61,323 bases of DNA from an uncultured Gammaproteobacteria bacterium (GCA_964485575.1 CAZAJO010000007.1:1-61323), one strand, 5' to 3'; shown: positions 5,545-49,973, counted from the first letter of the stretch. The notes: generated from the sequence alone by a model not told the origin. Translations and numbers: made by a program.

Positions 5545-5688
5545 AATTCATCTTAGCAAGCTATCCGGGTCCTGTCACTCCTCACCCCCATTTGCGCTCC
5601 TTCTCGCCCGCTCTAAATATCGAATATTCATAGTGATCGTTTGCTCGAAGTTCTCAATGGGGGTCCCCCAGTTGTGCCACCCGAAAAG

Positions 5689-5717
5689 TTGGAATATATG
5701 CCTATTTCTGGTAAACT
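5689..5717 (+). promoter_or_regulatory. Sigma70-like promoter TTGGAA-N17-TAAACT upstream of tRNA-Cys
   Basis: TTGGAA at 5689-5694 and TAAACT at 5712-5717, 17 nt before the tRNA 5' end. Confidence 0.5.
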
Positions 5718-8314: not shown

Positions 8315-9448
8315 TCAGTTATTGTCTACTTTGTCGGTTTGCTGACGGTCTGGATTTGGGATTGGTGGGCTCGTTGGTGGTGGTACATGAGTTGGTGATG
8401 GAATTGGTGTAGTTTCCCGCGTATCAATAGGTGGGGTTTGTGAAACAGGACTATTTGCTGTACGGAGGCCGTAATTTATATCTTTCCAAACCTGAAAGTC
8501 CAAAATGTTGACAGTGTTGTCTCCTGGAACAAAACATGAGGTTAAGGTTGTATTTACTTGATGAGTGTATTCTTTAAGCCACAATTCATAATCTAATCTA
8601 TTTATGTACCCATCTTTTACTGGATCACAGGATAATTGTTGTGGTGTTGAGGTTGGGGTAATAGATGGAGCGGAAGGTGGGCAAGTTTTATGAGTAGAGC
8701 AAAAATTCTGTGCTTCAAAGTCTAGTCTAAATGTATCCGTGCACTGGAAAGAGCTTGTAAATGTTTTTTGGGTTCCATCATTACAGGTAACTGTTATTGA
8801 TTTTGCTTGAGAAGAGCGGAAACAACCAGTTCTATCATAGGTCTTTGCCATGATACCGTTGGAATTACAGTTTGAAGTTGTTGGGGTTGGTCCATTGGCA
8901 GTTCCACCTTCAGTTGAGGTTGGTGTTGGTGTTCTTGTTGGGGTTGGGTTTGTTTGAGCGACGGTGGGCGTGGCCGTGGGTAATGGTTTGTTGACGCATG
9001 TATTACTACCCTTTAGGTTTGAGGGTGTTAGAACGTCACAGTAGTTTGTCGAACATTGAGAATTTTCACTACACCCACACCCGTTTGCTTTATAAGTAGC
9101 AACACTGCAATTTTGGCAAACTGCAAACCCAGATGCATAAACTGATGTTAGTCCTGTACAGCAAGCAATCTGTTGTGTCGGATCAGGGCTTTGTCCTTGA
9201 TATGCACACTCAGCACGATAGGGACGTGACCCTGTACAATACTGAGTACTTTCCAGAGCACCCGGTCCTGTGCATACACCCTGCTGCGTGCCCATAGTGT
9301 TCGCACTTGGTGGTTGCTCAACGCAGCACCTTGTATTCCCACCACAGGCGCCGGTGGTTGTACAGGTCTGTACTTGAGCTTGCGACTGAGCAACAGAAAA
9401 TACAAAAAAGAGGACAAAAAACAAGAAGACTAACAATTTCTTTCCCAT
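8315..9448 (-). CDS. Secreted Cys-rich protein (24 Cys) with dockerin-like segments and a Pro-rich tail
   Basis: Start moved to ATG 9448, giving the signal peptide MGKKLLVFLFFVLFFVFSVAQSQA. Dockerin-like segments are DPVKDGYINRLDYELWL and GDNTVNILDFQVW, the latter shared with 7012-8304. Confidence 0.6.
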   Translation of the reverse strand: MGKKLLVFLFFVLFFVFSVAQSQAQVQTCTTTGACGGNTRCCVEQPPSANTMGTQQGVCTGPGALESTQYCTGSRPYRAECAYQGQSPDPTQQIACCTGLTSVYASGFAVCQNCSVATYKANGCGCSENSQCSTNYCDVLTPSNLKGSNTCVNKPLPTATPTVAQTNPTPTRTPTPTSTEGGTANGPTPTTSNCNSNGIMAKTYDRTGCFRSSQAKSITVTCNDGTQKTFTSSFQCTDTFRLDFEAQNFCSTHKTCPPSAPSITPTSTPQQLSCDPVKDGYINRLDYELWLKEYTHQVNTTLTSCFVPGDNTVNILDFQVWKDINYGLRTANSPVSQTPPIDTRETTPIPSPTHVPPPTSPPIPNPDRQQTDKVDNN

Positions 9449-9507
9449 ACAAAATACGACGTGCAGTTTAATAGTAGTGAACTTCGGGTAGGGTGTCAAC
9501 CGGAAGA

Positions 9508-18677: not shown

Positions 18678-18719
18678 AATGAGTATGAATAGAATGTCAT
18701 ATCCCGCAAATAAAGTCAA

Positions 18720-23820: not shown

Positions 23821-24429
23821 ATGAAAATTCCAAAAGCATTAGAGCGTGTTGTCGAAAGCTTTGAGCGGCTTCCCGGTATCGGTCCAAAGTCTGCTCAAAG
23901 ACTTGGGTTTTATTTACTCCATGTTCCTCAAAGTGATCTTGAAGACTTCGCGGATGCGCTAATCAACCTTAAAAAGAATACTAAAATGTGTGCGATATGC
24001 TTCAATATCGGCACAACAGAACTTTGTGATGTGTGTGCAGATCCAGAACGCGACGTATCAACGGTCTGCATTGTTGAGGATGCATTAGACGTTCTTGCAT
24101 TTGAGAGGTCTGATAAATTTAAAGGGGTCTATCATGTTTTGCATGGTGTTGTTGATCCGCTTAATTCTATCGGTCCTGACGACATATATATACCACAGTT
24201 AATGAATCGAATTAGGGAGAAGGAATCAAAAGTTAAGGAATTGATTATTGCAACAAATCCCACGATGGAAGGCGAGGCAACAGCAATGTATATAGCGAAA
24301 GGAATAAAGAATGAGGAATCAGGGATTAAGCTAAGTAGGATTGGAAGAGGCCTTCCAGTTGGTGCAGACATCGAATACGCTGATGAAGTGACATTGGGAC
24401 GTGCTTTGGAGGGAAGAAGCGAATACTAA
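23821..24429 (+). CDS. recR: Recombination protein RecR
   Basis: 202 aa with LPGIGPKSAQRL, a C4 zinc finger C.IC....C..C, and a Toprim region. Confidence 0.95.
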   Translation: MKIPKALERVVESFERLPGIGPKSAQRLGFYLLHVPQSDLEDFADALINLKKNTKMCAICFNIGTTELCDVCADPERDVSTVCIVEDALDVLAFERSDKFKGVYHVLHGVVDPLNSIGPDDIYIPQLMNRIREKESKVKELIIATNPTMEGEATAMYIAKGIKNEESGIKLSRIGRGLPVGADIEYADEVTLGRALEGRSEY

Positions 24430-25916
24430 GCAGCTTTTGCTAGATCATCAGTTGCAGATGCTTGACCAGGTTGTGCTGGAAATTGTGTAACAGAATCGCT
24501 AGCTTCAGGAGTAGGAGGGGTAGTTGGTAAACCTGCACTAAGAGAAGCAGTATCATCTACGATTCCAGCTTCAGTTGCAAGAGGTGTTGGTAGTACAGGG
24601 TTAGTTGGCGACATTGTTCCTGGAACAGCAACAGTAGGAGCTGTGGGTTCATTGTCAACATCATTTGCGACCGGAGCAGCATCATCCGCAATTTCACCAA
24701 CAGTTGACGTTTCAGAACCGGTTTCTATCGGAATATCATGACCAACTTCTGCTGTTTGATCAGATGGTTCAGCAAGTGCAGCAGCAGAGAATGGAGGTCT
24801 TTCAGCGGCGACTGCGGCTCCATCAGCCATAGCTTGACCAAGAGCGTCACCATCAACAGCAGCATCACCACTAACAACAGGTGCATCAGGATGTGAAGCT
24901 GTTCCATCGACTGACCAATCTGGTGGAGCCATAGTACCATCTGCAACTGCCCCGGGACCCGCATGAACTGCTTCAGCATTTGCATCTGCGGACTGACCAA
25001 CTGGTAATTCTTCTGCTGGAGCATCTTCAGTAGCAACCTCTTCAGTTCCTGGCTCTACGACTGGAGTTGTTTCAACTGAAGTTGCGGCGGTTTTACTTGG
25101 GTCTCCTAGTCCTTCCACTGGGATAGCAGCAGCAGGTGCTTCTGGCAAAGCGCTTACTTCCTCAGCTGGTGCAACGTCAGCACTTGGAGTAAAAACTGCT
25201 GGAGTCTCAGGTGCATCTGTCTCAAGGACAGCAGGATGCTCTCCCGCATTTTCCATATCTTGTGTCAAGGTAGTTGCAGCTGCTTCAACTACAGGTGCTG
25301 GGACAACTTCTGGTTGAGTTGTACCAAGTGAAGGAGCAGGGGTTGCTACAACTTCAGCAGAAGCAGGTGTTGATGCGACCATTCCGCCATTTTCTGGACT
25401 TGGAATTGAATTTTGGAATGGTACACCTGTTGCAGCACCAGCAGCCATGGCATCGGGAGTTGAGAGCCCAGCATAGTTATTTGCTGCAGGAGTACTAAAG
25501 TCTCTCGTTACTGCAGGACCATCGGCAGTTGCACCGTTAAGATTGGCAACTGGTGGAGTTTCAAGAGTGCCATTTGGTGTTGTAGTTAGATGGTCAGGGG
25601 TGGGTTGTGGAGTGACAGTTTCAGTAGTTACGCTTGCACGAAGACCCAATGCGCCCAAAATTTTATGAAATCTCCCTGGTTCTTGTGGTGCTGTTTTTTG
25701 TGCAGCAACTTCAGCGGCTTTAGTATTTGCAGTAGCGAGTATTTCAGGCATTTGAGGAGTACCCACAGCTTCAAGTCCAGTCAAAGGTTTTGCTTCAGGT
25801 AGAACGGCAGGGTGCTGTCCATCAGCTTCCATATCTTGAGTTAGTGTAGTTGCAGGAGCAGCATCAACCGTTGGTGCACTAGATGTAGTATTGGGGGATT
25901 CTGTCTGAATATCCAT
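24426..25916 (-). CDS. Highly acidic, low-complexity (A/P/T/E/D/V) protein, predicted disordered
   Basis: 496 aa with no TM or signal peptide. By eye it has ~11 K/R against several-fold more D/E. It contains an internal repeat TTLTQDME(A/N)(D/A)G(Q/E)HPAVL and one basic amphipathic patch, GRFHKILGALGLRAS. Confidence 0.6.
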   Translation of the reverse strand: MDIQTESPNTTSSAPTVDAAPATTLTQDMEADGQHPAVLPEAKPLTGLEAVGTPQMPEILATANTKAAEVAAQKTAPQEPGRFHKILGALGLRASVTTETVTPQPTPDHLTTTPNGTLETPPVANLNGATADGPAVTRDFSTPAANNYAGLSTPDAMAAGAATGVPFQNSIPSPENGGMVASTPASAEVVATPAPSLGTTQPEVVPAPVVEAAATTLTQDMENAGEHPAVLETDAPETPAVFTPSADVAPAEEVSALPEAPAAAIPVEGLGDPSKTAATSVETTPVVEPGTEEVATEDAPAEELPVGQSADANAEAVHAGPGAVADGTMAPPDWSVDGTASHPDAPVVSGDAAVDGDALGQAMADGAAVAAERPPFSAAALAEPSDQTAEVGHDIPIETGSETSTVGEIADDAAPVANDVDNEPTAPTVAVPGTMSPTNPVLPTPLATEAGIVDDTASLSAGLPTTPPTPEASDSVTQFPAQPGQASATDDLAKAA

Positions 25917-32722: not shown

Positions 32723-32880
32723 GTGATTTGTGTAGAATTATTTTGACACTATAAATCAAGAGGAGGAGTAGAGTATTGGCTCGTTGATCCCTCCAGCAAC
32801 CCTGAGGAAACTTGAAGGGTGCTACACCCAACCCTATTAAGGGAAGGATTAGTCCTAAGCTATACGCCAAGGAAAAATAA

Positions 32881-32927: not shown

Positions 32928-33158
32928 ATGTCAGAATTTGATACACATAGTCAAAAAGGTGCACCTTTTGCCGGTGCTGCAAGAGATGATGAATCCTTTG
33001 TTAGAAAACTTAATGATCTTTCAGTTTGTGGTTTTGTTGATGTCGATACTATTAACGAGCGACCTGATGGATCAATATTTTTTGCTGGTTGGATTGTTAG
33101 AGAAGGTCCAACAGAAATAGCCAAACCAGAAGGGTGGCAGTTTTTTGTAAAAAAGTAG
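32928..33158 (+). CDS. Hypothetical small protein (76 aa)
   Basis: Good SD (GGAAGGTGG), no recognised family. Confidence 0.45.
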   Translation: MSEFDTHSQKGAPFAGAARDDESFVRKLNDLSVCGFVDVDTINERPDGSIFFAGWIVREGPTEIAKPEGWQFFVKK

Positions 33159-33169
33159 TAAAATCCAAC

Positions 33170-33880
33170 ATGGGCAAGCTTTCAAACGTACGAAGTGATT
33201 TAAAAAAGGCAAGTTCCCCTGAGAAAGCAAAGAAAAGTGCATGGTTTTTTAAAACTGAAAAAGGGCAATATGGGTATGGTGACAAATTTATCGGCGTCAC
33301 AATGCCAGAGCAAAGAATAGTTGCAAAAAAATATCCTGATCTTACTTTAACCGATATTGAAAAACTTCTTGCATCACCAATTCATGAAGAGAGAAGTGTT
33401 TCGCTGATAATATTATGCAAACAATTTGAAAAGGCGGATGATAAAAGACGGGACGAAATATTTGAATTTTATGTTTCGCATTCAAAGTATATAAATAATT
33501 GGGATCTAGTTGATGGATCTGCGTCTAGAATAGTAGGTGAGTATTTACTCGATAAAAAAATTACGCTTCTTATCATGTATGCCAAATCAGGAGATCTGTG
33601 GGAGAAAAGAATCGCTATGATATCAACATTTGCATTCATTTACCATGGAAGAACGAAAGAAACATATTTAATTGCCGACCTCTTGTTAGATGAAAAACAT
33701 GATCTTCTACAAAAAGCAGTTGGTTGGATGCTGCGTGAGACTGGAAAGAGAGTCTCTGAGAAAGAACTAAAGAGTTATCTAAAAAAGAACTACAAAAAAA
33801 TGGGGAGGACAGCACTGAGATATTCTATAGAACATTTTCCCAAAGAAGAAAGAGACAAATACCTCAAGGGTCAGATCTAA
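33170..33880 (+). CDS. DNA alkylation repair protein (AlkD-like HEAT-repeat family)
   Basis: Start at the internal ATG 33170. ...A...FFKT..G.YG.GD.F.GV.MP..R..AK.......NWDLVD......G....... is the family pattern. Confidence 0.8.
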   Translation: MGKLSNVRSDLKKASSPEKAKKSAWFFKTEKGQYGYGDKFIGVTMPEQRIVAKKYPDLTLTDIEKLLASPIHEERSVSLIILCKQFEKADDKRRDEIFEFYVSHSKYINNWDLVDGSASRIVGEYLLDKKITLLIMYAKSGDLWEKRIAMISTFAFIYHGRTKETYLIADLLLDEKHDLLQKAVGWMLRETGKRVSEKELKSYLKKNYKKMGRTALRYSIEHFPKEERDKYLKGQI

Positions 33881-38399: not shown

Positions 38400-39023
38400 T
38401 TAAAATCCGAGGTCCTCTTTTATGAAAATAAGATTGATGCGCGACTTATTCAATTCATTATTGAGAATAAAAAGCTTATTCACATTACTTGATGCTTCAG
38501 GCCCATAGACAGATTTCATACGCTTATCCTCCTGGGGAAGAACATGCTCATATATTCGTGCCAGTCCTTCCTCGAGATTTTTGACAATCTTTTTTGTAGA
38601 CACAACCCAAATGACGTGAGAAGCGCCATATGTGTAAGCGGGTAGTTGGCTTCCGGATCCTGACGCTACGATAACTTTCCCATCTTCGGTCACTGCATGA
38701 ACGCTTCCTATTATATAGTCAGGACCAGCTCCCAATTTTTGCATAACCAAGCTATCTATGTTGCGATCAAGTTTTGACAATTGTGATTTTACGGAGTTAT
38801 GCATCCCACTATCATTTATTACATCGGTAAGTCCTAATTGATTAAGTGTCGTTGATGTTGCGGTCATAACTTCTACTCCTTTTGGGATGAGGGAATGAAC
38901 TAATTTTCTTGTTTGGGAAGAATTATCTGCTACATAGACAGTAATACCATGAGAAGAAAGAGCAGTGGTGGCTTTTTGGATTGATGCTGTTGTTGCGAGT
39001 GTTGAGAACTTGTTTTTATTCAT
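38400..39023 (-). CDS. LUD (lactate-utilisation B/C-like) domain protein
   Basis: 207 aa. ...V.V.....A.......IP.G..V....S.TL..LGL......IIGSVHAVTEDGKVIVASGSGSQL. Confidence 0.75.
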   Translation of the reverse strand: MNKNKFSTLATTASIQKATTALSSHGITVYVADNSSQTRKLVHSLIPKGVEVMTATSTTLNQLGLTDVINDSGMHNSVKSQLSKLDRNIDSLVMQKLGAGPDYIIGSVHAVTEDGKVIVASGSGSQLPAYTYGASHVIWVVSTKKIVKNLEEGLARIYEHVLPQEDKRMKSVYGPEASSNVNKLFILNNELNKSRINLIFIKEDLGF

Positions 39024-39713: not shown

Positions 39714-40637
39714 ATGAAAAAAGAAAAGAAAATTACAGCAAAAAAAGTCATTATTTGGTCATTTGCAGTTGATCTGTTAGACATATTGCTTTCACTGGGT
39801 GCTGCAGTAATCACTGGAAGTATTGTGATGTTTACAGAAGCCCTTGAAGGGGTTTCTGATCTAATCTCTTCAGGCCTTCTTCTCATTGGTCTTAAAAGGT
39901 CGTCAAGAAAGGATGATAGGGCACACCCATTTGGGTATGGTAGGGAAATTTATTTCTGGACCCTTCTTGCTGCTTTGGTAATGTTTGGTATCACGTCTTC
40001 TGTCTCTATCTATTTAGGTTGGGAAAGGTTTTGGAATCCGCACGCACTTCATGATATACACTTGGCTTTTATTATTCTCTTTTTTGGGGTGATCACTAAC
40101 GGTTACGCATTTTACTTAAGCTTCAAGAGATTAATGAAAAAAAGGAGCATAAAGCAGATTATTAGGATTTTTTACCGGTCATCTCTTATAGAAACAAAAA
40201 CGACCTTCACGCTCGACCTAATGGGGACGGTTGCGGCTGTACTAAGAATTTTAGCTTTGACCGCATACGTTCTTACGGGGGATGCTCGGTTTGATGGTAT
40301 TGGAGCTATGGTAGTGGGTGTTGCTCTCGCTTTTTTCGCTTTTATACTTCTACTGGGAATACGTGACTTACTGATAGGCAGAAGCGCCTCGCCAGAGACT
40401 GAGGCTAAAATCCGTGAGGCTGCTCTTGCTGTTGATGAGGTTGCCAAGGTCCTTGACCTCAAAACATTACACGTAGGCTCAGAAAAACTTCTCGTTAATC
40501 TTGAGGTCAATATGAATAATAATCTAAATACAGATGAGCTTGAGCATCTCATGGACAAAGTAAAAGAGAGCATCCAGATCCAAGTGCCATCGGTAAAGTA
40601 CATCCAAGTAGAGCTTGAAACTCCCGAAAAAGCCTAA
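39714..40637 (+). CDS. Cation diffusion facilitator (CDF) family metal efflux transporter
   Basis: Six TM helices plus a C-terminal cytoplasmic domain, with ...EALEGVSDLISS...HPFGYGR. TATACT (39700-39705) lies 8 nt before the ATG. Confidence 0.85.
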   Translation: MKKEKKITAKKVIIWSFAVDLLDILLSLGAAVITGSIVMFTEALEGVSDLISSGLLLIGLKRSSRKDDRAHPFGYGREIYFWTLLAALVMFGITSSVSIYLGWERFWNPHALHDIHLAFIILFFGVITNGYAFYLSFKRLMKKRSIKQIIRIFYRSSLIETKTTFTLDLMGTVAAVLRILALTAYVLTGDARFDGIGAMVVGVALAFFAFILLLGIRDLLIGRSASPETEAKIREAALAVDEVAKVLDLKTLHVGSEKLLVNLEVNMNNNLNTDELEHLMDKVKESIQIQVPSVKYIQVELETPEKA

Positions 40638-40692
40638 TTTGTCAACTCCTCAGTACCTTTAAAATACACCGAAAATATGCTATACTACATGT

Positions 40693-40791
40693 TCGGTTTT
40701 AAACCTATAGTGTGATTTTATCACGCGAACGTAGTAGGTGTTTAAATCACTCTTACTACGTATAGTCTACGTTTCGCATGTAGATTTTTTT
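40693..40791 (+). ncRNA. Candidate ~100-nt small RNA (or long 3' UTR of the CDF gene)
   Basis: The extended -10 TGCTATACT sits at 40678-40686. It is followed by hairpins GTGAT-ttt-ATCAC and ACGTAGTAGG-N13-CTTACTACGT, then the terminator TCTAC-N9-GTAGA plus T7 (40766-40791). No ORF longer than 8 codons. Confidence 0.3.
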
Positions 40792-40851
40792 GGTTCCAAA
40801 AACCTGCACTTTGAAAATTTGGTTTCGTATTTTTAGATAGTTTTTTATTTT

Positions 40852-40872
40852 ATCCCGCACTCGATGCGGGAT
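40852..40872. repeat. Palindromic hairpin ATCCCGCA-ctcga-TGCGGGAT, related to 21511-21529
   Basis: It has the same loop (CTCGA) and stem as TCCCGGA-ctcga-TCCGGGA, with a compensatory G:C to C:G swap. It sits at the left edge of the high-GC island. Confidence 0.7.
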
Positions 40873-40969
40873 CTACTAGGTATTTGATCGTGGATCAGGG
40901 GTGGGTTATCCCACTCGCGACCCACGATCAAGATTTCCTATATTAGTCTTGTCTGGGAAGGAGTTCGTA

Positions 40970-41155
40970 TTGACGAACAAGATATTTGATCGAGTCGGAA
41001 GACTTCTTAGCCGGCGCGCTCACGATGTTGGGCATGCTGCTATGGAATTCGGACACAGTGTCCACGACATCGAACGCGCGGCAGCAAGCCGCATGCACAG
41101 GGAAAAAGCCGACAAAGCCCATCCCGCCATCGTCAACGACAAGCCCGCCAACTAA
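40970..41155 (+). CDS. Possible small ORF (61 aa) at the start of the high-GC island
   Basis: TTG start 6 nt after AAGGAG. The high-GC context inflates ORF length and no family is recognised. Confidence 0.3.
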   Translation: MTNKIFDRVGRLLSRRAHDVGHAAMEFGHSVHDIERAAASRMHREKADKAHPAIVNDKPAN

Positions 41156-41201
41156 GACGGGTTACTGTAACCACCCAAACCAAGGCAAGGAGAGATTGAC
41201 G

Positions 41202-41363
41202 ATGTCACAACACGTCAGAAAAAAGACAAAGAAGAGGCGTGAGTCTCATGGTACGCGCGGGTCGCCGAAAATCGGCAAGATCCGCAAATTCAGGAACCGC
41301 CAACAACAAAACGGTTCCGATACTTCACTCCGCAACGCTTCGCGTGGCGGACTAGTGTCCTAA
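41202..41363 (+). CDS. Possible small, very basic ORF (53 aa) in the high-GC island
   Basis: ATG 41202 lies 7 nt after AAGGAGAG. The product is MSQHVRKKTKKRRESHGTRGSPKIGKIRKFRNRQQQ... Confidence 0.3.
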   Translation: MSQHVRKKTKKRRESHGTRGSPKIGKIRKFRNRQQQNGSDTSLRNASRGGLVS

Positions 41364-41384
41364 GGGACAGAAGGAACTACCTAG

Positions 41385-44048
41385 TTGACTCAGCTTATTA
41401 CAGCCCAAGATGGGGAAGCCGTCAAGAGCGGGGCAGCAGCCCCGACGACGTACGTCTATCCGTTCCGCGAAGGCAACGCAACCATGCGAGACCTTCTCGG
41501 CGGCAAAGGAACTGGCCTGGCCGAGATGACCAATTCAGGCGCGCCTGTTCCTCCCGGCTTCACCATCACCACCGAAGCTTGCAATGCGTTTTCCGCGACC
41601 GACCAATTCCCTGATGGGATGATGGATCAAGTTATGGTTGCGCTGGCCGAGGTGGAGAGGCAGACCGGAAAGCGGTTCGGTGATCCCACCAACCCGCTTC
41701 TGGTATCCGTCCGTTCCGGCGCGAAGTTCTCGATGCCGGGCATGATGGACACCGTCCTCAACCTGGGTCTCAACACCCAGACAAGCGAGGGCATGGCGCG
41801 GTTGACCAACAACCCGCGCTTTGCTGCGGATGCGTATCGCCGCTTCGTTCAGCTCTATGGCAAGATCGTTCTTGATGTGGACGGAGAACTCTTCGAGCAC
41901 GTCATGAACGAAGCGAAGGGTGGTGATCGTCAAGACACCGACCTGAGCACCAAAGAACTGATTGCGATCGTCGAGAGATTCAAGGCGATCGTTCTCGAAG
42001 TAACCGGCGTAGCATTTCCAGAAGATCCTCACAAGCAGTTGGTAGAAGCGATCGCCGCGGTCTTCCGTTCCTGGAATGGCCGACGCGCACGCGACTACCG
42101 CCGTCTCAACAAGATCTCGGACCTGCTCGGCACCGCGGTCAATGTCCAGTCGATGGTATTCGGCAACATGGGCAATGATTCCGCAACGGGGGTTGCGTTC
42201 TCACGCAACCCTTCGACCGGCGAACCAGGCCTCTACGGAGAATACCTGGTAAACGCTCAGGGTGAGGACGTTGTAGCGGGTGTACGCACCCCACGTCCCA
42301 TCCAAGAAATGGAGCGTGATATGCCGGAGGTGTATCGCCAGTTCTGTGACATCGCCAGCGGCCTGGAAAGGCACTACCGCGACGTTCAGGACATGGAGTT
42401 CACCGTCGAACGCGGCAGACTTTACATGCTCCAAACCCGTACCGGCAAGCGCACGGGCAAAGCGGCGATTCGTATTGCCGTGGACCTCGTCCGCGAAGAA
42501 GTGATCGATCGGGTAACGGCAGTCCAACGTGTTGAGCCTCAACAGCTCGACCAACTCCTGCACCCGATGATCGTTCCTGCTGCCAAGCAAAAAGCCGGCT
42601 TTCTGACCAAGGGACTTCCCGCCTCACCCGGCGCAGCGTCGGGGAAGGTAGTGTTTGATCCCGACGAAGCAGTAGAGCTGGCTAAGGTCGGTCCGGTGAT
42701 CCTGGTGCGGACCGAAACTGCACCCGAGGATTTCCATGGAATGGTTGCTGCCCAAGCGGTGCTTACCGCACGCGGGGGCATGACCAGCCACGCTGCCGTC
42801 GTGGCACGCGGCATGGGCAAACCCTGCGTCGCTGGCGCGGGCGCACTGAGCATCAATTACGGTGTCCAGTCGTTCAGCGTCAACGGCACAATCATCAATA
42901 AAGGTGACTTCATCACTCTCGACGGTTCAACCGGCGAGGTGTTCGTGGGTCATCTCCCAACACAAGACCCGGTGCTGGACGAGTACTACCACACCCTGAT
43001 GGGCTGGGCAGACGAGTTCCGCACGATGGGTGTCAGGACCAATGCAGACACGCCAGAAGACGCACTCAAAGCGCGTGAGTTTGGCGCCGAAGGCATTGGT
43101 CTTTGTCGCACCGAGCACATGTTCTTCCAAGGCGACCGGATCGACGCTGTCCGCGAGATGATCCTGGCAGAGACGCTCGAAGAGCGCGAAGCAGCGCTCG
43201 CCAAAATCGAACCCTACCAGCGAGAGGATTTCGTCGGAATCTTCCGCGCTATGGACGGGTTCCCAGTGACCATCCGGACTCTCGACCCGCCTTTGCACGA
43301 GTTCCTCCCTCATGAAGAGAAGGACATTCGTGAACTGGCCGAAAAGATGGGCGTGGACTTCGCTTTGCTCATGGGCAAGGTGCATAGTCTGCGTGAAGCA
43401 AACCCAATGCTTGGCACGCGTGGTTGCCGGCTTGGTATCTTGTTCCCCGAGATCACTGAAATGCAGACGCGCGCGATCTTCGAAGCGGCCGTGCAGGTAA
43501 GTGGTGAAGGGATCGAGGTTCATCCCGAGGTGATGATCCCCCTGGTCAGCACCGTTCAAGAGTTTCGGTCCCAAAAGACGATCGTCAGGCTCGTAGCTGA
43601 GGAAGTTGGTTTTACCGACCACCTCATAGGCACGATGATCGAGATCCCGCGAGCAGCCCTGGTTGCCGACGAGATCGCCGAAGAGGCTGAGTTCTTCTCT
43701 TTCGGCACCAATGACCTGACGCAGATGGCGATGGGCATCTCTCGTGACGATGCAGGTCGGTTCATTCCGCACTACATCGAAGCGAAGATCTTCGCCGACG
43801 ACCCCTTCCAGGTCCTCGACCAGAAGGGCGTCGGTCAATTGGTCGAGATCGGTACCGAGCGTGGTCGCAAGACCCGCCCGAACCTCAAAGTGGGAGTCTG
43901 CGGTGAGCATGGCGGTGAGCCATCCTCCGTGCAGTTCTTCGCACGCACTGGTCTTGACTACGTCTCCTGTTCGCCGTATCGCGTGCCTATCGCGCGGCTG
44001 GCAGCAGCACACGCGGCACTCAAGATGCAGCAAGAGGCCGCCGTTTAG
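41385..44048 (+). CDS. ppdK: Pyruvate, phosphate dikinase
   Basis: 887 aa. The N-terminus is MRDLLGGKGTGLAEM, the phospho-His motif is GGMTSHAAVVARGMGKPCV, and the PEP-utilising C-domain is GLCRTEHMF...FFSFGTNDLTQ. TTG start after AGAAGGAA. Confidence 0.93.
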   Translation: MTQLITAQDGEAVKSGAAAPTTYVYPFREGNATMRDLLGGKGTGLAEMTNSGAPVPPGFTITTEACNAFSATDQFPDGMMDQVMVALAEVERQTGKRFGDPTNPLLVSVRSGAKFSMPGMMDTVLNLGLNTQTSEGMARLTNNPRFAADAYRRFVQLYGKIVLDVDGELFEHVMNEAKGGDRQDTDLSTKELIAIVERFKAIVLEVTGVAFPEDPHKQLVEAIAAVFRSWNGRRARDYRRLNKISDLLGTAVNVQSMVFGNMGNDSATGVAFSRNPSTGEPGLYGEYLVNAQGEDVVAGVRTPRPIQEMERDMPEVYRQFCDIASGLERHYRDVQDMEFTVERGRLYMLQTRTGKRTGKAAIRIAVDLVREEVIDRVTAVQRVEPQQLDQLLHPMIVPAAKQKAGFLTKGLPASPGAASGKVVFDPDEAVELAKVGPVILVRTETAPEDFHGMVAAQAVLTARGGMTSHAAVVARGMGKPCVAGAGALSINYGVQSFSVNGTIINKGDFITLDGSTGEVFVGHLPTQDPVLDEYYHTLMGWADEFRTMGVRTNADTPEDALKAREFGAEGIGLCRTEHMFFQGDRIDAVREMILAETLEEREAALAKIEPYQREDFVGIFRAMDGFPVTIRTLDPPLHEFLPHEEKDIRELAEKMGVDFALLMGKVHSLREANPMLGTRGCRLGILFPEITEMQTRAIFEAAVQVSGEGIEVHPEVMIPLVSTVQEFRSQKTIVRLVAEEVGFTDHLIGTMIEIPRAALVADEIAEEAEFFSFGTNDLTQMAMGISRDDAGRFIPHYIEAKIFADDPFQVLDQKGVGQLVEIGTERGRKTRPNLKVGVCGEHGGEPSSVQFFARTGLDYVSCSPYRVPIARLAAAHAALKMQQEAAV

Positions 44049-44165
44049 ACCGCGTCTGACGCGGAACATCAATACGAAACCAAATAAGGCCGACCGCACG
44101 GTCGGACATCCCGTCTGACTCTAACGAGCAGACACCCCCTCCGCGTATAGCGGGCAACCCAAGCT

Positions 44166-44198
44166 GGGTTCCCTTCGCTTGCGCGGAGGGAACCCTTT
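44166..44198 (+). terminator. Hairpin GGGTTCCC-N14-GGGAACCC plus TTT at the right edge of the high-GC island
   Basis: Perfect 8-bp GC-rich stem followed by TTTAAAATT. Confidence 0.5.
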
Positions 44199-44248
44199 AA
44201 AATTCATTCCCAATTCAAAAAAATTCTATGCTATAATTTCCTACGTTT

Positions 44249-44491
44249 ATGGTAGATAGAGATGAAAGATCAAAACTTGGTGCACCTGATTGGTTTCCTG
44301 ACGTTTTGTCTGAAGAAGAGCAAAGGTACAGAAATTTAGTTCATGTGGTGCGCCCGCTTGTTAATGGGATGGCAATCCACTTAGCATCAGATGAAGCTCA
44401 AGCGCAGTATAAAGAAGGAGAAATGAACTATCTACAAGAATTGATCTCAGAAGCATACAGAAGAATGGAAAAATATCCCCCTCTTTGGTAG
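44249..44491 (+). CDS. Hypothetical protein (80 aa)
   Basis: ORF with the extended -10 TGCTATAAT (44229-44237) 11 nt upstream and no SD. Confidence 0.5.
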   Translation: MVDRDERSKLGAPDWFPDVLSEEEQRYRNLVHVVRPLVNGMAIHLASDEAQAQYKEGEMNYLQELISEAYRRMEKYPPLW

Positions 44492-44530
44492 AAAAAAGCA
44501 TCTCCCCATTTCTAACCTCCATTTTGCGGG

Positions 44531-44560
44531 TTGACTTCAGTTTTTTTAGGTGGCTACAAT
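44531..44560 (+). promoter_or_regulatory. Promoter TTGACT-N18-TACAAT with an ~85-nt leader before ATG 44645
   Basis: TTGACT at 44531-44536 and TACAAT at 44555-44560. Confidence 0.5.
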
Positions 44561-44644
44561 GAATGAAGGACTTCCTATGTTTTAGCTTTTGAACTGAACA
44601 GTGCAAAAGCCAAGGAATGCAACATTTGAAATCACCAATTTAGC

Positions 44645-45889
44645 ATGTTTTACTTTTCAGAACTCATCAATAAAAAAGTAGTCAATGAGAATGGTAAGAC
44701 TGTAGGAAAGTTGAAAGACTTTCTTTTTCTTGCTGAAGAATCCCCAAAGATAACAAAAATTTTCATAAAAAAAAGCCCACGACGAAGCTTTGCCATATTT
44801 ATTAAAGAGGTAAAAGAGATAAATGATCATATAGTTGTCAATAAAGATTTTGTTGAAAAGGACATAGCAGAGCGCGAGTTTTCCATAGCCAAAAATCTTC
44901 TTAACCGCCAGATCATTGATGTTAAAGGAGGAAAGGTTGTTAGGGTAAATGATATAGCGATACAGGACAAGCAGAGTGTATCGTCCGGAACCAATAAAGA
45001 GGAGGGTCAAGAATATTATATAGCTGGTGTTGATGTTGGATTTAGAGCCATTTTGCGGTGGTTCAAATTAGAAAAGCCTACGGTTCCTCTTTACAAATTA
45101 TTCAAATTATATTCCCATCCACATTTTCTGTCATGGGGGGACATAGAGCCATTGGAACTTGCACGGGGTAATGTCCAGCTGAAAAAAGATATTGGGGATC
45201 TTGAACGGATGCGCCCAGAGGATCTGGCTGATTACTTAGAAAAGACTAACATTAGAAACGTCAATAAGATCATCACCGGTCTTGATGACGAATACGCAGC
45301 TGACGTTATCGAGGATTTGAATATCAACTATCAGACAGCACTTTTCAAGCGCTTCGAGCCGGAACAGGCAACAAGACTTATAGACTTTTTAGAACCTGAT
45401 GAGGCAGTTGATATTCTATTGACGTTGCCTAGGGAAAAGAGAAACGAAATATTAGATAGCTTGCCTAAAGGCAAAAACGATGAATTGCGCGAGTTGATGA
45501 AGTATTCAAAGACTTCTGTCGGAAAACTTCTCAATCCTGATTTTATCACGGTCAGTTCTGAAGCAACCGGATCCCAAGCTCTTTCAATAGTGAAAGAGAA
45601 ACTTCCTGAATCCCCATTCTCTTCCTATATATATGCACTCAACCAAGAAGGGCATCTGGTAGGAGTAGTTGAATTATCAGACCTTTTAATGCATGAGGGA
45701 GACGAGCAGGTGTTTAAATTCATGGAGCAAGATGTTGTTGTAGCTCATCTCACGACTCCTCAAGAAATAGCTCTCAAGCGCATGCTCAAATATAAATTGT
45801 ATGCGCTTCCCATTATCGAAGATAGCCAAAAGATGATTGGGGTAGTGACGTTTGATGACATGATAGAAGATGTAGTGGACAAACTATAA
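44645..45889 (+). CDS. Soluble PRC-barrel + MgtE N-domain + tandem CBS protein (no MgtE membrane domain)
   Basis: 414 aa. PRC-like segments are LINKKVVNENGKTVGKLKDFLF and LLNRQIIDVKGGKVVRVNDIAI. The MgtE_N region is RPEDLADYLE...EPDEAVDILL..., followed by two CBS motifs. The ORF ends without TM helices. Confidence 0.8.
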   Translation: MFYFSELINKKVVNENGKTVGKLKDFLFLAEESPKITKIFIKKSPRRSFAIFIKEVKEINDHIVVNKDFVEKDIAEREFSIAKNLLNRQIIDVKGGKVVRVNDIAIQDKQSVSSGTNKEEGQEYYIAGVDVGFRAILRWFKLEKPTVPLYKLFKLYSHPHFLSWGDIEPLELARGNVQLKKDIGDLERMRPEDLADYLEKTNIRNVNKIITGLDDEYAADVIEDLNINYQTALFKRFEPEQATRLIDFLEPDEAVDILLTLPREKRNEILDSLPKGKNDELRELMKYSKTSVGKLLNPDFITVSSEATGSQALSIVKEKLPESPFSSYIYALNQEGHLVGVVELSDLLMHEGDEQVFKFMEQDVVVAHLTTPQEIALKRMLKYKLYALPIIEDSQKMIGVVTFDDMIEDVVDKL

Positions 45890-45896
45890 AAATATT

Positions 45897-47141
45897 ATGA
45901 TGAAGATTTGGAGACAAGTAAGAATTAAGTTTTTGATTTTGATTGCCGTCATGGGTCCAGGACTCATTACGGCTTTTGCTGACAATGATGCGGGTGGAGT
46001 GGCAACTTATTCTGTAGCAGCATCGAGATTTGGTTATTCAATGCTCACGACACTAATCCCGATAACAGTAGTTCTGATGGTAACGCAAGAAATTGGAAGT
46101 AGACTTGCTGTTGTGACTGGGAAAGGATTGGGCGATTTGATTCGTGAAAAATTTGGGATAAGAGTGTCAGTTCTGATCTTTAGCATCCTTTTCTTTGTAA
46201 ATTTTGGTGTAATTATCCAGAATCTTGGTGGTCTTAAAGATGGTCTTGCGCTTTTTAATCTTAACTTATGGATATTTATGCCGATAGTGATTGCATTTCT
46301 TTTCTTGCTTATCACCAAAGCCTCATATGCAAAGGTTGAGAAGTTCTTTCTATTTTTGATATTTTTCTACGTTGCTTACTTAATAAGCGCAGTTCTTGCC
46401 AAACCTGATTGGGGACTAGTTGGAAAGTCACTTGTGGTTCCGCAAGGAAAAATTTCATTTGGGTACCTATATACTGCTGTTGCTGTGCTTGGAACAACGG
46501 TTACTGCATGGGGACAGTTCTTTATTAATAGTTATGTTAAGGATAAAAAATTGACGGTTGATAGGCTCAAATACAACCAGATAGAAATTTATGCTGGAGC
46601 ATTTCTGACTGACATAATAACGCTATTCATGATGGTGGCTGTCGCGGCCACAATTTTTGTAAATAAAGTTCAGATATCTGGAGCTGCTGATGCTGCACTG
46701 GCAATAAAGCCCTTTGCAGGAGATCTGGCTGGTGTTATGTTTGGAGGAGGCCTTCTTATCGCTGGATTTATCGGGGCAGCCATCGTGCCACTTGCTACAG
46801 CTTATGCCTTCTCAGAATTTTTTGGATACGAAGGAAGTCTTGATGTCAGTTTTTCAAAAAGTAGATTATTTTATGGGTTTTTCATATTTCAGATACTCTT
46901 AGGACTTTTGGTCATCAGTTTTCCGAATTTCTCATTATTTAAGATTACGCTTTATGCCGACTACATTAATGGAATATTCTTACCTGTTATCTTCTTCTTC
47001 CTATATAAATTCGCTAATGACAAAGAACTTATGGGTAAGCATAAAAACACAAAGCTCCAAAATATCTTGCTTGTTGGATCTGGACTTGCCATTACAATAG
47101 CTGCTTTAGTAGGAGGGATCGGAAGCATGCTTGGAAAGTAA
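45897..47141 (+). CDS. NRAMP/SLC11-family transporter, non-canonical metal site
   Basis: 414 aa with ~11 TM helices. TM1 reads GPGLITAFADNDAGGVATYS where canonical proteins have DPGN. TM6 reads AVLGTTVTAWGQFF where canonical proteins have G-A-x-V-M-P-H. Confidence 0.85.
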   Translation: MMKIWRQVRIKFLILIAVMGPGLITAFADNDAGGVATYSVAASRFGYSMLTTLIPITVVLMVTQEIGSRLAVVTGKGLGDLIREKFGIRVSVLIFSILFFVNFGVIIQNLGGLKDGLALFNLNLWIFMPIVIAFLFLLITKASYAKVEKFFLFLIFFYVAYLISAVLAKPDWGLVGKSLVVPQGKISFGYLYTAVAVLGTTVTAWGQFFINSYVKDKKLTVDRLKYNQIEIYAGAFLTDIITLFMMVAVAATIFVNKVQISGAADAALAIKPFAGDLAGVMFGGGLLIAGFIGAAIVPLATAYAFSEFFGYEGSLDVSFSKSRLFYGFFIFQILLGLLVISFPNFSLFKITLYADYINGIFLPVIFFFLYKFANDKELMGKHKNTKLQNILLVGSGLAITIAALVGGIGSMLGK

Positions 47142-48320: not shown

Positions 48321-49973
48321 ATGGATCCACAATTACTGTCCCAGTTAACTAAGGTTGTTGAAGGAGATGTCTCCTCAGACCAGACAACCCTTCACGAATT
48401 TAGTCATGACGCATCTTTGTTTGAGGTCATTCCACAAGCAGTAGTATTCCCAAAAACAAATAAAGATGTCGAAAATCTCGTCAAATTCGTAGCCGACAAC
48501 AAGAAGAAATATCCGAAATTATCACTAACTGGGAGAAGTGCAGGGACTGATATGGGTGGAGGATCCATCAACGATTCTATAATCGTTGCATTCACAAAAT
48601 ACTTCAATCTAACTCCAACAATCAAAGAAAGGATCGCTACAACGCAACCGGGAGTATATTATCGTGACTTTGAAAAAGAAACATTGAAGGAAGGGCTTTT
48701 ATTCCCTTCATATCCTGCATCCCGTGGGTTATGTGCCATGGGCGGAATTGTCAACAATAATTCCGGTGGAGAAAAATCCTTACAATATGGAAAAACTGAG
48801 CGGTATGTAAAAAGTGTGAAGGTGGTTCTTCGAGACGGTAATACGTATGAGTTCAAAAAGATTTCTGAAGCAACACTTGAGAAAAAAATGGAACAAAAAG
48901 ACCTGGAAGGTGAGATCTATCGGGAGATGTTCCATCTTATTAAAAATAATTACGATGAGATAATGGCTGCAAAGCCACAGGTAAGTAAGAATTCTGCCGG
49001 ATACTATCTGTGGAATGTGTGGGACAAGGAGGAAAAAACCTTTGATCTGACAAAATTGTGGGTAGGCGCTCAGGGTACTTTGGGACTTCTTTTAGAAGCT
49101 GACATTGAGCTTGTGCCAATTCACACTCACCGAGAGATGATGGTTATTTTTCTTCATGAGCTGACGCATTTAGGGGAAATAATAAACGCTGCGCTTCCTC
49201 TCAAGCCCGAAAGTTTTGAATCATACGATGACAATACTCTAAAGCTTGCTCTTAAATATTTCCCAGAGTTTGCGAAACAACTGGGAGCTAAAGGATTTAT
49301 TGGAAGTGGTATTGCATTTTTCCCTGAATTTTTGATGGTAATGAGTAGTGGGCTTCCAAAATTGGTGTTGCAGATAGATTTTACCGGAAATGATCCAGCA
49401 GAGCTTGCCCAAAAGATAGCAACGCTTAAAGAAAAATTGTCACCATTTCATCCTCAGATAAAAATTGCAATAGAATCACAAGAAGAGAAGTATTGGTTGA
49501 TAAGACGGGAAAGCTTCAACCTGTTAAGGAAAAAGATAAAGAATAAGCATACAGCTCCATTTATCGATGATTTTGTCATAAAGCCTGAATATATCGCTGA
49601 AGTAATGCCTCAAATAAACAAAATTATACAACGCCACAAGAATTTCATCTATACGGTAGCCGGGCATGTGGGGGATGGAAATTTTCATATCATTCCACTC
49701 GTTGATATCACCAAAAAATCTATCAGAGATGCAATCCCACAGATCTCAAAAGAAGTGTATGAGTTGATCATAAAATATGGAGGATCCATAACTGGAGAGC
49801 ACAATGACGGTCTTGTGAGGACACCGTATTTACGGCAAATGTATGGGTCTAAGGTCTATGAGTTATTTGAGAAGACAAAAGAGATCTTTGATCCAGAAAA
49901 TATTTTTAACCCTCGGAAAAAGGTGGGAGTGACTATGGACTATTCGATGCAACATCTCCGCATGCATTGGTAA
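48321..49973 (+). CDS. FAD-linked oxidase (GlcD / D-lactate dehydrogenase-like)
   Basis: 550 aa. The FAD_binding_4 pattern is P.AVVFP....DV..LVKF......L..R.AGT...GG. Confidence 0.85.
   Translation: MDPQLLSQLTKVVEGDVSSDQTTLHEFSHDASLFEVIPQAVVFPKTNKDVENLVKFVADNKKKYPKLSLTGRSAGTDMGGGSINDSIIVAFTKYFNLTPTIKERIATTQPGVYYRDFEKETLKEGLLFPSYPASRGLCAMGGIVNNNSGGEKSLQYGKTERYVKSVKVVLRDGNTYEFKKISEATLEKKMEQKDLEGEIYREMFHLIKNNYDEIMAAKPQVSKNSAGYYLWNVWDKEEKTFDLTKLWVGAQGTLGLLLEADIELVPIHTHREMMVIFLHELTHLGEIINAALPLKPESFESYDDNTLKLALKYFPEFAKQLGAKGFIGSGIAFFPEFLMVMSSGLPKLVLQIDFTGNDPAELAQKIATLKEKLSPFHPQIKIAIESQEEKYWLIRRESFNLLRKKIKNKHTAPFIDDFVIKPEYIAEVMPQINKIIQRHKNFIYTVAGHVGDGNFHIIPLVDITKKSIRDAIPQISKEVYELIIKYGGSITGEHNDGLVRTPYLRQMYGSKVYELFEKTKEIFDPENIFNPRKKVGVTMDYSMQHLRMHW

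Follow-up and report, generated by a model that had tools for sequence, protein, structure and literature searches.

Omelchenko et al., in Genome Biol in 2003, are said to have described xenologous gene displacement in situ together with mosaic operons. Exchange via conserved flanks is known for the pneumococcal capsule locus (dexB-aliA) and for the O-antigen clusters (galF-gnd), and the GC content of the latter is persistently atypical. The ppdK gene, which encodes pyruvate,phosphate dikinase (PPDK), is frequently transferred and is linked to pyrophosphate-dependent or minimal glycolysis, and its lateral transfer into anaerobic eukaryotes and other microbes is known, with Slamovits and Keeling reportedly documenting such a case in 2006. 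At the RNA level, kilobase-range helices bracket the 16S and 23S rRNAs for RNase III, and the cyclization sequences of flaviviruses are complementary end sequences. Bacteria of the Candidate Phyla Radiation (CPR) have a minimal metabolism and depend on partners, and how they acquire and retain enzymes of central carbon metabolism is the question addressed by the locus analyzed here, a GC-rich island with a ppdK gene (positions 41385-44048, plus strand) in a stretch of 61,323 nucleotides (nt) of DNA (GCA_964485575.1 CAZAJO010000007.1:1-61323). The whole stretch is called the window, and coordinates refer to it unless another locus is named; it was compared with 27 loci, whose handles begin with L. 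In a preliminary description the island had been taken for a recent, unameliorated horizontal acquisition by an unobvious mechanism.

We consider it probable that a conserved dikinase slot exists here and that the island is what it carries at present, i.e., that genes have recurrently been displaced in situ within an RNA-defined expression slot. The pyruvate/phosphoenolpyruvate (PEP) step would have been filled repeatedly by foreign genes at a fixed, RNA-structured site, and these genes would then have been shared via recombination. The mechanism is narrowed in this way to the replacement of cargo in a pre-existing dikinase slot plus homologous exchange, and insertion of a mobile island is set aside. 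Xenologous gene displacement in situ is the closest known concept: the position is fixed, the neighboring HxlR and cation-efflux (CDF) genes are conserved (and a LUD-domain gene in nearly all loci), the homologues found there are unrelated, the histories of cargo and flanks disagree, and a distant donor can be traced for ppdK (within the Chloroflexota) and for one PEP synthase gene, ppsA-1 (75-81% identity). Here, however, at least three replacements would have occurred in one narrow clade, the edges lie inside the untranslated regions (UTRs) of one mRNA and not at the gene borders of an operon, and the frame persists even when empty (locus L026).

Other described systems share part of these traits. 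The sharp atypical composition and the foreign phylogenetic signal are those of a classical genomic island, but integrase, tRNA and direct repeats are lacking, and a single gene without independent insertion, old and shared, is concerned. Unlike a transposon or a miniature inverted-repeat transposable element, the unit showed neither transposase nor target-site duplication in the window or the 27 loci and occupies one site; the perfect 15-bp inverted repeat that brackets it would be compatible with such an element, yet the frame extends past this repeat and the one-sided changes in it fit wobble pairing on one strand only. Flanks that would serve as homology arms, lasting atypical composition, mosaic identity and a cargo less diverged than most of the flanks are shared with the capsule and O-antigen loci; those are surface-antigen loci under diversifying selection, whereas this slot carries one enzyme of central carbon metabolism and its arms would be the untranslated regions of a single mRNA. 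In contrast with the PPDK transfers to anaerobic eukaryotes, the recipient is a CPR bacterium, the donor belongs to the Chloroflexota and the dikinase slot pre-existed; a literature search for PPDK transfer in CPR bacteria, for links between Levyibacteria and Chloroflexi, and for Patescibacteria living on Chloroflexota returned nothing specific. As with the rRNA-bracketing helices and the flavivirus cyclization sequences, complementary sequences are found at the two ends of what is predicted to be one transcript. In the icaR mRNA of Staphylococcus aureus a 3′UTR motif pairs with the Shine-Dalgarno region, the partners being ~1 kb or less apart (PMC3868564). The locus resembles icaR in the evolutionary conservation of complementary sequences at both predicted transcript ends, but its 5′ partner lies off the Shine-Dalgarno sequence, 2.8-3.3 kb separate the two partners, and the helix persists although the coding sequences between them differ.

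The main interest of the locus lies in the recurrent swapping of cargo in an RNA-structured slot and in the covarying long-range helix, not in the GC island itself. If our reading is right, it would provide a concrete case of in-situ gene displacement with edges within the UTRs of one mRNA, and a rare bacterial candidate, backed by covariation, for kilobase-range 5′-3′ mRNA pairing. The Chloroflexota donor signal, found twice, could guide the search for the hosts of an uncultured CPR lineage, and an atypical GC content that is old and persistent would caution against equating a GC island with a recent transfer.

Cargo genes of the proposed dikinase slot

The ppdK gene starts at a TTG codon and encodes 887 amino acids (aa), and it was identified with Pfam, TIGR01828, alignment to PDB entries and phylogeny. 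The TIGR01828 equivalog score was 1330.6 bits (cutoff 843.45), with residues 22-879 covering profile positions 2-865 of 865. The three-domain architecture was complete (PF01326, PPDK_N; PF00391, PEP-utilizers; PF02896, PEP-utilizers_C); the domains of PPDK are a nucleotide-binding, a swivelling phospho-histidine and a PEP/pyruvate-binding domain. Residues 23-880 aligned to residues 4-872 of the Clostridium symbiosum PPDK structures 9PZL/1KBL, and in the alignment to the C. symbiosum enzyme the motifs GGMTSHAAVVARG and CGEHGG, which we take to be the catalytic (phospho-)histidine motif and the C-terminal cysteine motif of PPDK, were both kept. Judged from its sequence, the island gene is intact and codes for a genuine pyruvate,phosphate dikinase, and we infer that its product interconverts pyruvate and PEP.

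Outside a few low-GC contigs, the nearest relatives of this protein were from Chloroflexota, with 74-81% aa identity (those named were Herpetosiphonaceae, Chloroflexus and Dehalococcoidia), and no Chloroflexota sequence was closer than ~81%. In a neighbor-joining tree rooted on the C. symbiosum sequence (100 bootstraps; an unrooted version was also built), the CPR copies, i.e., those from low-GC contigs, were monophyletic (96/100) and nested within the Chloroflexota (87/100). Because the CPR clade is nested in this way, horizontal transfer is supported. The horizontal acquisition that had been proposed is borne out, with a GC-rich lineage as its source, by the identity of these relatives and by the tree position, and the phylogeny suggested for finding the donor points to the Chloroflexota; on this sequence evidence, a transfer from Chloroflexota to the CPR lineage is well supported.

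In other loci the slot holds other genes. The L009 island (53-58% GC), at the same position between the CDF gene and the MgtE-like gene, carries a gene for a 772-aa PEP synthase (ppsA-1, also present in L022) whose identity to PpsA from Tepidiformaceae, Dehalococcoidia and metagenome-assembled genomes (MAGs) labeled 'Chloroflexi' is 75-81% (~80% to the Dehalococcoidia type). A second and a third PpsA lineage occupy islands of 51-61% GC: ppsA-2 (L018, L023 and L025) is 54% identical to ppsA-1, ppsA-3 (L016 and L017) is 45% identical to ppsA-1, and the identity between these two is 39%. Each of the three types passed at least one PEP-synthase equivalog cutoff. The neighbors stayed the same across the ppdK, ppsA-1, ppsA-2 and ppsA-3 loci, with aa identities of 69-95% for CDF and 72-96% for HxlR. 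Upstream of ppsA, L009 retains the sequence found ahead of the ppdK start codon in both L003 and L008 (GGCNCCAAGTCC.AC.CAG.AG, a Shine-Dalgarno context of the ppdK type), so that ppsA has taken the place of a ppdK in that locus.

The frame can also be found without cargo. L026 (ERZ28573534 scaffold_20136, positions 5033-5700) has the promoter, the leader with its local hairpin, an intact small open reading frame (ORF) A of 56 aa, the post-stop hairpin and the 3′ element, and no dikinase, i.e., the frame is empty, and L024 and L027 have no frame at all. In the CDF gene tree, close relatives carried unlike cargo: ppsA-2 in L025 versus ppsA-3 in L016; an empty frame in L026 versus ppdK in L014 and ppsA-1 in L009; and nothing in L027 versus ppdK in L013. 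On this tree the empty frame of L026 looks like a loss, the polarity not being firm.

Some minor features of these loci are recorded here. L022, whose cargo is 97% identical to that of L009 at the nt level, is without the 269 nt of L009 (6790-7058) in which a GC-rich ORF of 80 aa precedes ppsA, and this ORF is therefore dispensable or spurious. The extra small ORFs of L009, L018 and L013 had no family match. A candidate contig with both a near-donor PpdK (P0007) and a CDF protein (P0131), suggested by the equal length of their contigs (9283 bp), was rejected; the CDF contig, L024, carries no dikinase, and the match in length is coincidental.

The conserved frame and its predicted long-range helix

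The frame was read from alignments of the noncoding parts across loci, with a motif survey over 12 loci. Whatever the cargo, the slot comprises a predicted promoter, a structured 5′ leader, the small ORF A, the dikinase gene and a structured 3′ element. The predicted promoter-like site (40658-40686, plus strand), found by a consensus scan and conserved in the leader alignment, would consist of TTTAAA, a 17-nt spacer and TATACT with a TG extended -10; its core, ATGCTATACT, is conserved in siblings, and ATGCTATAMT occurs twice in the window, at the promoter and at 44228. The structured 5′ leader (~280 nt; 40690-40969, plus strand) is common to ppdK- and ppsA-bearing siblings, and its minimum free energy (MFE) was -92.6 kcal/mol (z=-6.4 versus shuffles). 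Within the leader are a hairpin followed by U7 (40766-40791), a palindrome present in some loci only (40852-40872), a 21-nt motif shared across loci (CTTTGAAAATTTGGTTTCGTA) and, at the end of the conserved stretch, the Shine-Dalgarno sequence GGAAGGAG (40956-40963). A local leader hairpin (40884-40931, plus strand) has a 10-bp stem, TTGATCGTGG/CCACGATCAA, whose enclosed part differs greatly in length among loci; its 10 pairs were 100% paired in 9 distinct sequences, and two of them had changed on both sides (C-G to U-A in L016, L018 and L023, and U-A to C-G in L018).

Downstream of the stop codon of the dikinase gene come a hairpin (44050-44064, plus strand; CCGCG-TCTGA-CGCGG, from direct reading and the MFE fold), the motif ACGAAACCAAAT and a GC-rich hairpin set of ~120 nt. 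A hairpin of differing sequence stands at the post-stop position in the loci read (the window, L013, L016 and L018). The multi-hairpin 3′ element (44088-44200, plus strand), with hairpins at ~44090-44105, 44113-44134 and 44137-44195, is common to ppdK, ppsA and empty (L026) frames; the MFE of the 3′ region had a z of -5.8 versus shuffles, and RNAalifold returned 27 pairs for the element, 11 of them with changes on both sides. A search of 40600-44700 against Rfam gave nothing even at E<=1, and thus neither the leader nor the 3′ element matches a described RNA family.

These alignments also shifted the borders of the island. The nested hairpins at its left edge and the 'terminator' at its right edge, as they had been called, were both recovered by an inverted-repeat search (40884-40931 and 44166-44195, the latter within the last hairpin of the 3′ element), but they belong to the conserved frame and do not mark the ends of the island. 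The left edge of the cargo is not at 40880, as had been proposed, since 40884-41155 is frame in common with siblings that carry a different gene; according to the leader and 3′ alignments across loci, the ppdK-specific segment runs from ~41160-41385 to ~44066. The palindrome at 40852-40872 had been regarded as a copy of a dispersed genome repeat, but the window holds only one exact copy and the siblings, among the 27 loci, have it only at the same site. Its small, GC-rich sequence, ATCCCGCA-N5-TGCGGGAT, was found at 9575-9593 of L003, 6383-6401 of L009 and 2837-2855 of L021, nowhere else in the window or the 27 loci, and it is missing from L008, L014, L022 and L026. L014 has a different GC-rich mini-hairpin slightly upstream of the palindrome site.

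The two short ORFs reported earlier do exist. ORF A (40970-41155, plus strand; 61 aa, TTG start, preceded by GGAAGGAG) is part of the frame and is intact even in the cargo-less L026, and the core of its peptide, TVHD[IV]E.A[AK]A.R[ML], is kept across ppdK, ppsA and empty loci. It had no Pfam or NCBIfam match, and one relative only among 1.84 billion representative proteins. The small basic ORF B (41202-41363, plus strand; 53 aa) is of uncertain coding status: it gave no BLASTP alignment with the basic ORF at the same place in L013, and the Shine-Dalgarno/TTG start adjacent to it and the N-terminal extension of PpdK are in common with L013 only.

A feature absent from the preliminary description is a perfect 15-nt inverted repeat that brackets the unit, with its halves at 40817-40831 (ATTTGGTTTCGTATT) and 44071-44085 (AATACGAAACCAAAT, unpaired in the local 3′UTR fold), both on the plus strand. 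It is the longest perfect inverted repeat of the region, and its 13-mer has two copies only in the window. In 10 loci (all the cargo-bearing loci tested) the halves, 2.8-3.3 kb apart, could form a helix of 13 pairs, with 98.5% of the cells paired and a duplex energy of -17 to -19 kcal/mol; none of 500 shuffles reached the observed values, and slid registers paired at 28-49%. Two pairs showed compensatory double changes in L016, where TTTGGTTT had become TTGGTTTT with the matching change 2.9 kb away, and three pairs had changed from U-A to U-G in L009, L022 and L023 (6 U-G cells). Every one-sided change was A to G opposite U, which would leave an A-C mismatch on the minus strand, so that one-sided changes are tolerated on the plus strand only, as fits pairing in the plus-strand RNA. 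The 5′ partner lies ~125-140 nt upstream of the first Shine-Dalgarno sequence, GGAAGGAG, which the 3′ motif does not occlude. With whole UTRs RNAduplex did not separate the observed value (-77.5) from the shuffled mean (-75), as long sequences yield huge spurious duplexes, and the case for the helix rests on covariation and uniqueness. Most likely, the two ends of the dikinase mRNA pair and close the unit; the helix may protect the ends, provide an RNase III site or simply act as the closing element.

From these data the following course of events can be proposed. The slot, directly downstream of the CDF gene, would be one structured transcription unit consisting of the promoter, the ~280-nt folded leader, ORF A, a PEP/pyruvate dikinase gene and a multi-hairpin 3′ region of ~150 nt, and a 13-15-nt sequence of the leader would pair with its complement in the 3′ region of the mRNA, closing the unit. 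Foreign coding sequences would arrive as DNA by uptake and replace the resident dikinase coding sequence via illegitimate or short-homology recombination. The incoming genes would persist because the frame provides the promoter, the translation signals and the RNA-end structure, with strong selection for a working frame, and the conserved frame would subsequently act as homology arms for spread among siblings. The GC richness would reflect GC-rich donors and an incomplete, possibly counteracted, amelioration.

The same inverted repeat could be read at the DNA level, as the terminal repeats or recombination sites of a non-autonomous, dikinase-carrying mobile cassette. A conserved and perfect 15-bp repeat flanking the unit, both halves of which changed together in L016, would be expected of such an element, and so would the varying presence of cargo among close relatives and the closeness of the repeats to the unit ends in L013. 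Nevertheless, we regard this explanation as unlikely. No transposase or integrase gene, target-site duplication or second copy was found in the window or the 27 loci, and the unit varies neither in site nor in orientation. When metagenomes were scanned with the 21-nt leader motif, three stretches were retrieved: L022 and L023, which hold units of this same type, and L021, which ends shortly after the leader. Furthermore, the frame extends outside both repeats (the promoter and leader on the 5′ side, a hairpin set of ~120 nt on the 3′ side), and the A to G changes opposite U are wobble pairs only in plus-strand RNA or single-stranded DNA.

Composition, age and exchange of the island

The segment at ~40.9-44.2 kb has a GC content of 57-60%, compared with ~40% for the background. 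In detail, the GC content was 56.8-59.4% in the 1-kb windows covering 41001-44000 and 34-48% in the remaining 1-kb windows, except for the 16S rRNA gene at 1-1000; at 200-nt resolution it stepped up at ~40900-41000 and down at ~44150-44250. The overall GC of ppdK is 0.589, and its GC at third codon positions (GC3) is 0.681, compared with a mean of 0.320 (standard deviation 0.047, maximum 0.440) in the other 57 ORFs of the window (z=7.7). At second positions (GC2) the gene is unremarkable (z=0.6), the pattern expected if the codon choice, and not the protein content, differs. The tetranucleotide distance from the background peaked at 41101-44100 (z=13.7), and the seven highest-scoring 3-kb windows all overlap the island. 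The jump in GC proposed for ~40880-44195, the GC3-rich codons of ppdK and the position of the island outside the normal range of the window were thus confirmed by sliding GC, codon and tetranucleotide statistics. The long antisense ORFs noted before were likewise found (e.g., one of 390 aa at 42927-44099 on the minus strand), and none had a Pfam or other family match. It had also been stated that integrase, tRNA and direct repeats are missing at the borders, and searches for ORFs and Pfam domains, tRNAs and repeats agreed: the only two tRNAs of the window are at 1440 and 5735, no direct repeats were found at the island borders, and the island consists of ppdK and two small ORFs without family matches, with no integrase-like ORF or other mobility gene.

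Presence of the island in siblings was then informative on its age. At least five lineages carry this island immediately after the same CDF gene. They are represented by the window, L008, L003-L007, L014 and L013, with PpdK identities to the window of 77-93%: 93% in L008, 84% in L003-L007 (P0002), 78% in L014 and 77% in L013, all at the same position. L003-L007 are five independently assembled contigs from five samples, with an island of 58-60% GC in a background of ~38%. The GC3 of ppdK was 0.84 in the donor-clade copy (L015, on a contig of 63.5% GC), 0.68-0.71 in four of the CPR lineages and 0.53 in L013, and on the L013 branch 96 synonymous changes were from GC to AT and 7 from AT to GC. 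It follows from the sharing among siblings and the drop in GC3 that the transfer predates the split of the lineages and that amelioration is partial. As read from these comparisons, a Chloroflexota-type ppdK is shown to have entered the slot once, before the lineages of the window, L008, L003, L014 and L013 diverged.

These data contradict the 'recent, unameliorated' transfer of the preliminary description. A recent one-off acquisition by this genome, with essentially no amelioration, would account for the sharp composition borders, the GC3 of 0.68 and the finding that the closest outside relatives are Chloroflexota. It is very improbable, however, given that five or more diverged lineages, whose PpdK proteins are just 77-93% identical, have the same island beside the same CDF gene, that the CPR copies are monophyletic, and that the GC3 is well under the 0.84 of the donor clade and as low as 0.53 in L013.

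A composition jump is also the classic sign of an assembly or binning chimera, here a Chloroflexota fragment mis-joined into a CPR contig, and there are two short contigs with ends close to those of the island: L001 begins at window position 40901, and L002 corresponds to 41125-44102, almost exactly the island alone. Even so, a chimera has next to no probability. L001, from another sample and 98.6% identical at the nt level, crosses the right junction, the left one is covered, in a relative, by L021, and the junctions were reproduced independently in L008, in the five samples of L003-L007, in L014 and in L013; no Chloroflexota sequence is nearer than ~81% aa, and the frame sequences run unbroken across the borders. 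L001 and L002 are short-read contigs of the same strain that end within or beside the hairpin-rich frame. Binning by composition could readily drop or misassign GC-rich pieces such as L002, and, if the island is old cargo of a conserved slot, the locus is a caution against pipelines that discard GC-atypical segments. The idea that assemblies break at the island, for which L010-L012, starting near the MgtE-like gene, had been considered, was dropped: L010 has a different synteny and no island, and L011 and L012 are contigs cut inside the MgtE-like gene.

Exchange among siblings was analyzed from synonymous (dS) and nonsynonymous (dN) divergence and from local identity. Between the window and L003, ppdK had a dS of 0.52 and a dN of 0.095, versus a dS of 1.1 to saturation and a dN of 0.02-0.12 for most flanking genes. 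Between L003 and L014, the leader, ORF A and the 3′ element were 94-99% identical, the adjacent CDF gene 55-79%, and ppdK a mosaic of 68-95%. A 1.7-kb tract of 93-99% identity inside ppdK was shared by the window and L008, with 77-91% around it, and the 5′ end of the window gene (the TTG start and the N-terminal extension) was of the L013 type while its body was closest to L008. The mosaic identity and a dS of ppdK below that of most flanks indicate frequent homologous recombination among siblings, in which cargo and frame ends are exchanged, and the frame ends are the likely recombination arms. In the neighborhood, the Nramp gene (45897-47141) also had a low dS (0.21 versus L008 and 0.58 versus L003, compared with 0.7 to saturation for its neighbors), which suggests another tract of recent recombination close to the island.

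Several points weigh against reading the island as the cargo of a recurrently refilled slot. The trees are neighbor-joining trees with limited sampling, the proxy for the host is a single neighboring gene (CDF) that may itself recombine, and donors are known for ppdK and ppsA-1 only, of the four cargo lineages. The reading also calls for repeated, near-exact replacement of a coding sequence. Co-transcription of the helix halves, the promoter and any processing are predictions; both compensatory pairs of the helix come from one lineage (L016) and possibly reflect one event per side; and a DNA element whose terminal repeats co-vary would give a similar picture. In L026, with its empty frame, only 7 of 13 positions of the motifs pair in register (its 5′ motif is of the common type and its 3′ motif of the L016 type, hence the poor pairing). 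Finally, the branches of the window, L008, L003 and L014 imply an equilibrium GC3 of ~0.62 for ppdK, compared with ~0.45 for the flanks, which simple amelioration does not predict; the gap is a rough estimate of z=2.6, and a parsimony bias would, if anything, shrink it.

This equilibrium, indicated by the polarized synonymous changes in four lineages, and the GC richness of every cargo type would also suit an old native CPR dikinase, with no transfer at all, whose GC content is kept by selection and whose likeness to Chloroflexota reflects deep relatedness. The probability of this explanation is very low as well: an aa identity of 74-81% to Chloroflexota far exceeds the level of vertical descent between phyla, the CPR clade sits inside the Chloroflexota, four mutually distant cargo lineages (ppsA types at 39-54% aa) occur in one slot between neighbors that are 70-80% identical, and on the L013 branch the gene decays towards the host composition. 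High GC is common to the four cargo lineages, and its persistence may be due to biased gene conversion linked to recombination, to selection on folding, or to donors that were GC-rich in every case.

A bolder version of the reading as a recurrently refilled slot is put forward here only tentatively, namely that the frame is an RNA-defined 'expression socket' that captures foreign dikinases, that Chloroflexota are candidate hosts or partners, and that the GC content of the cargo is actively maintained. A small-ORF mRNA closed by the 5′-3′ helix would capture dikinase genes, express them and pass them on; at least two of these genes would have come from Chloroflexota; and the GC content would be upheld, for example through GC-biased gene conversion linked to recombination or through selection on how the mRNA folds, and would not be the fading trace of a transfer.

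Host and neighboring genes

By the labels of its relatives and its gene content, the host is a Patescibacteria (CPR) organism of a Levyibacteriota-like clade: one syntenic relative was deposited as Candidatus Levyibacteriota and one CDF homologue as 'Patescibacteria group', and a gene content with many family-less ORFs fits. The MAG records of L008, L009, L011 and L012, with a CPR-type locus, bear the title 'uncultured Gammaproteobacteria bacterium', which does not match their gene content and Levyibacteriota-like relatives and is likely to be a placeholder or a mislabel.

The gene order LUD, HxlR, CDF, ppdK, MgtE-N/CBS protein, Nramp, GH15, FAD-oxidase is common to the window and L003-L007. 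The slot is flanked in the window and in L003-L005 by the genes for the LUD-domain protein (38400-39023, minus strand) and for a FAD-linked oxidase resembling D-lactate dehydrogenase (48321-49973, plus strand), and almost every locus with the slot also has the LUD gene beside it. This neighborhood hints that the dikinase may serve a route from lactate via pyruvate to PEP.

At the start of the window there is a partial 16S rRNA gene (1-1285, model positions 189-1533), followed by a tRNA-Ile(GAT) gene on the opposite strand (1440-1516) and by protein-coding genes (1629-3752); no 23S rRNA gene follows the 16S gene within the window, and the rRNA genes appear to be unlinked. An S-adenosylmethionine (S-box) riboswitch at 32750-32854 (plus strand), with an MFS transporter gene before it and an ORF at 33134-33880 after it, scored 48.6 bits, barely above the gathering threshold of 44.4. 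A 496-aa ORF at 24426-25916 (minus strand), without a Pfam match, has a GC of 0.70 at first, 0.58 at second and 0.18 at third codon positions. Other large ORFs with a GC2 of at least 0.54 are at 4474-5544 (CAP domain), 8315-9499 and 15927-18719 (the last two with no Pfam family), and these high-GC2 ORFs possibly encode low-complexity surface proteins.

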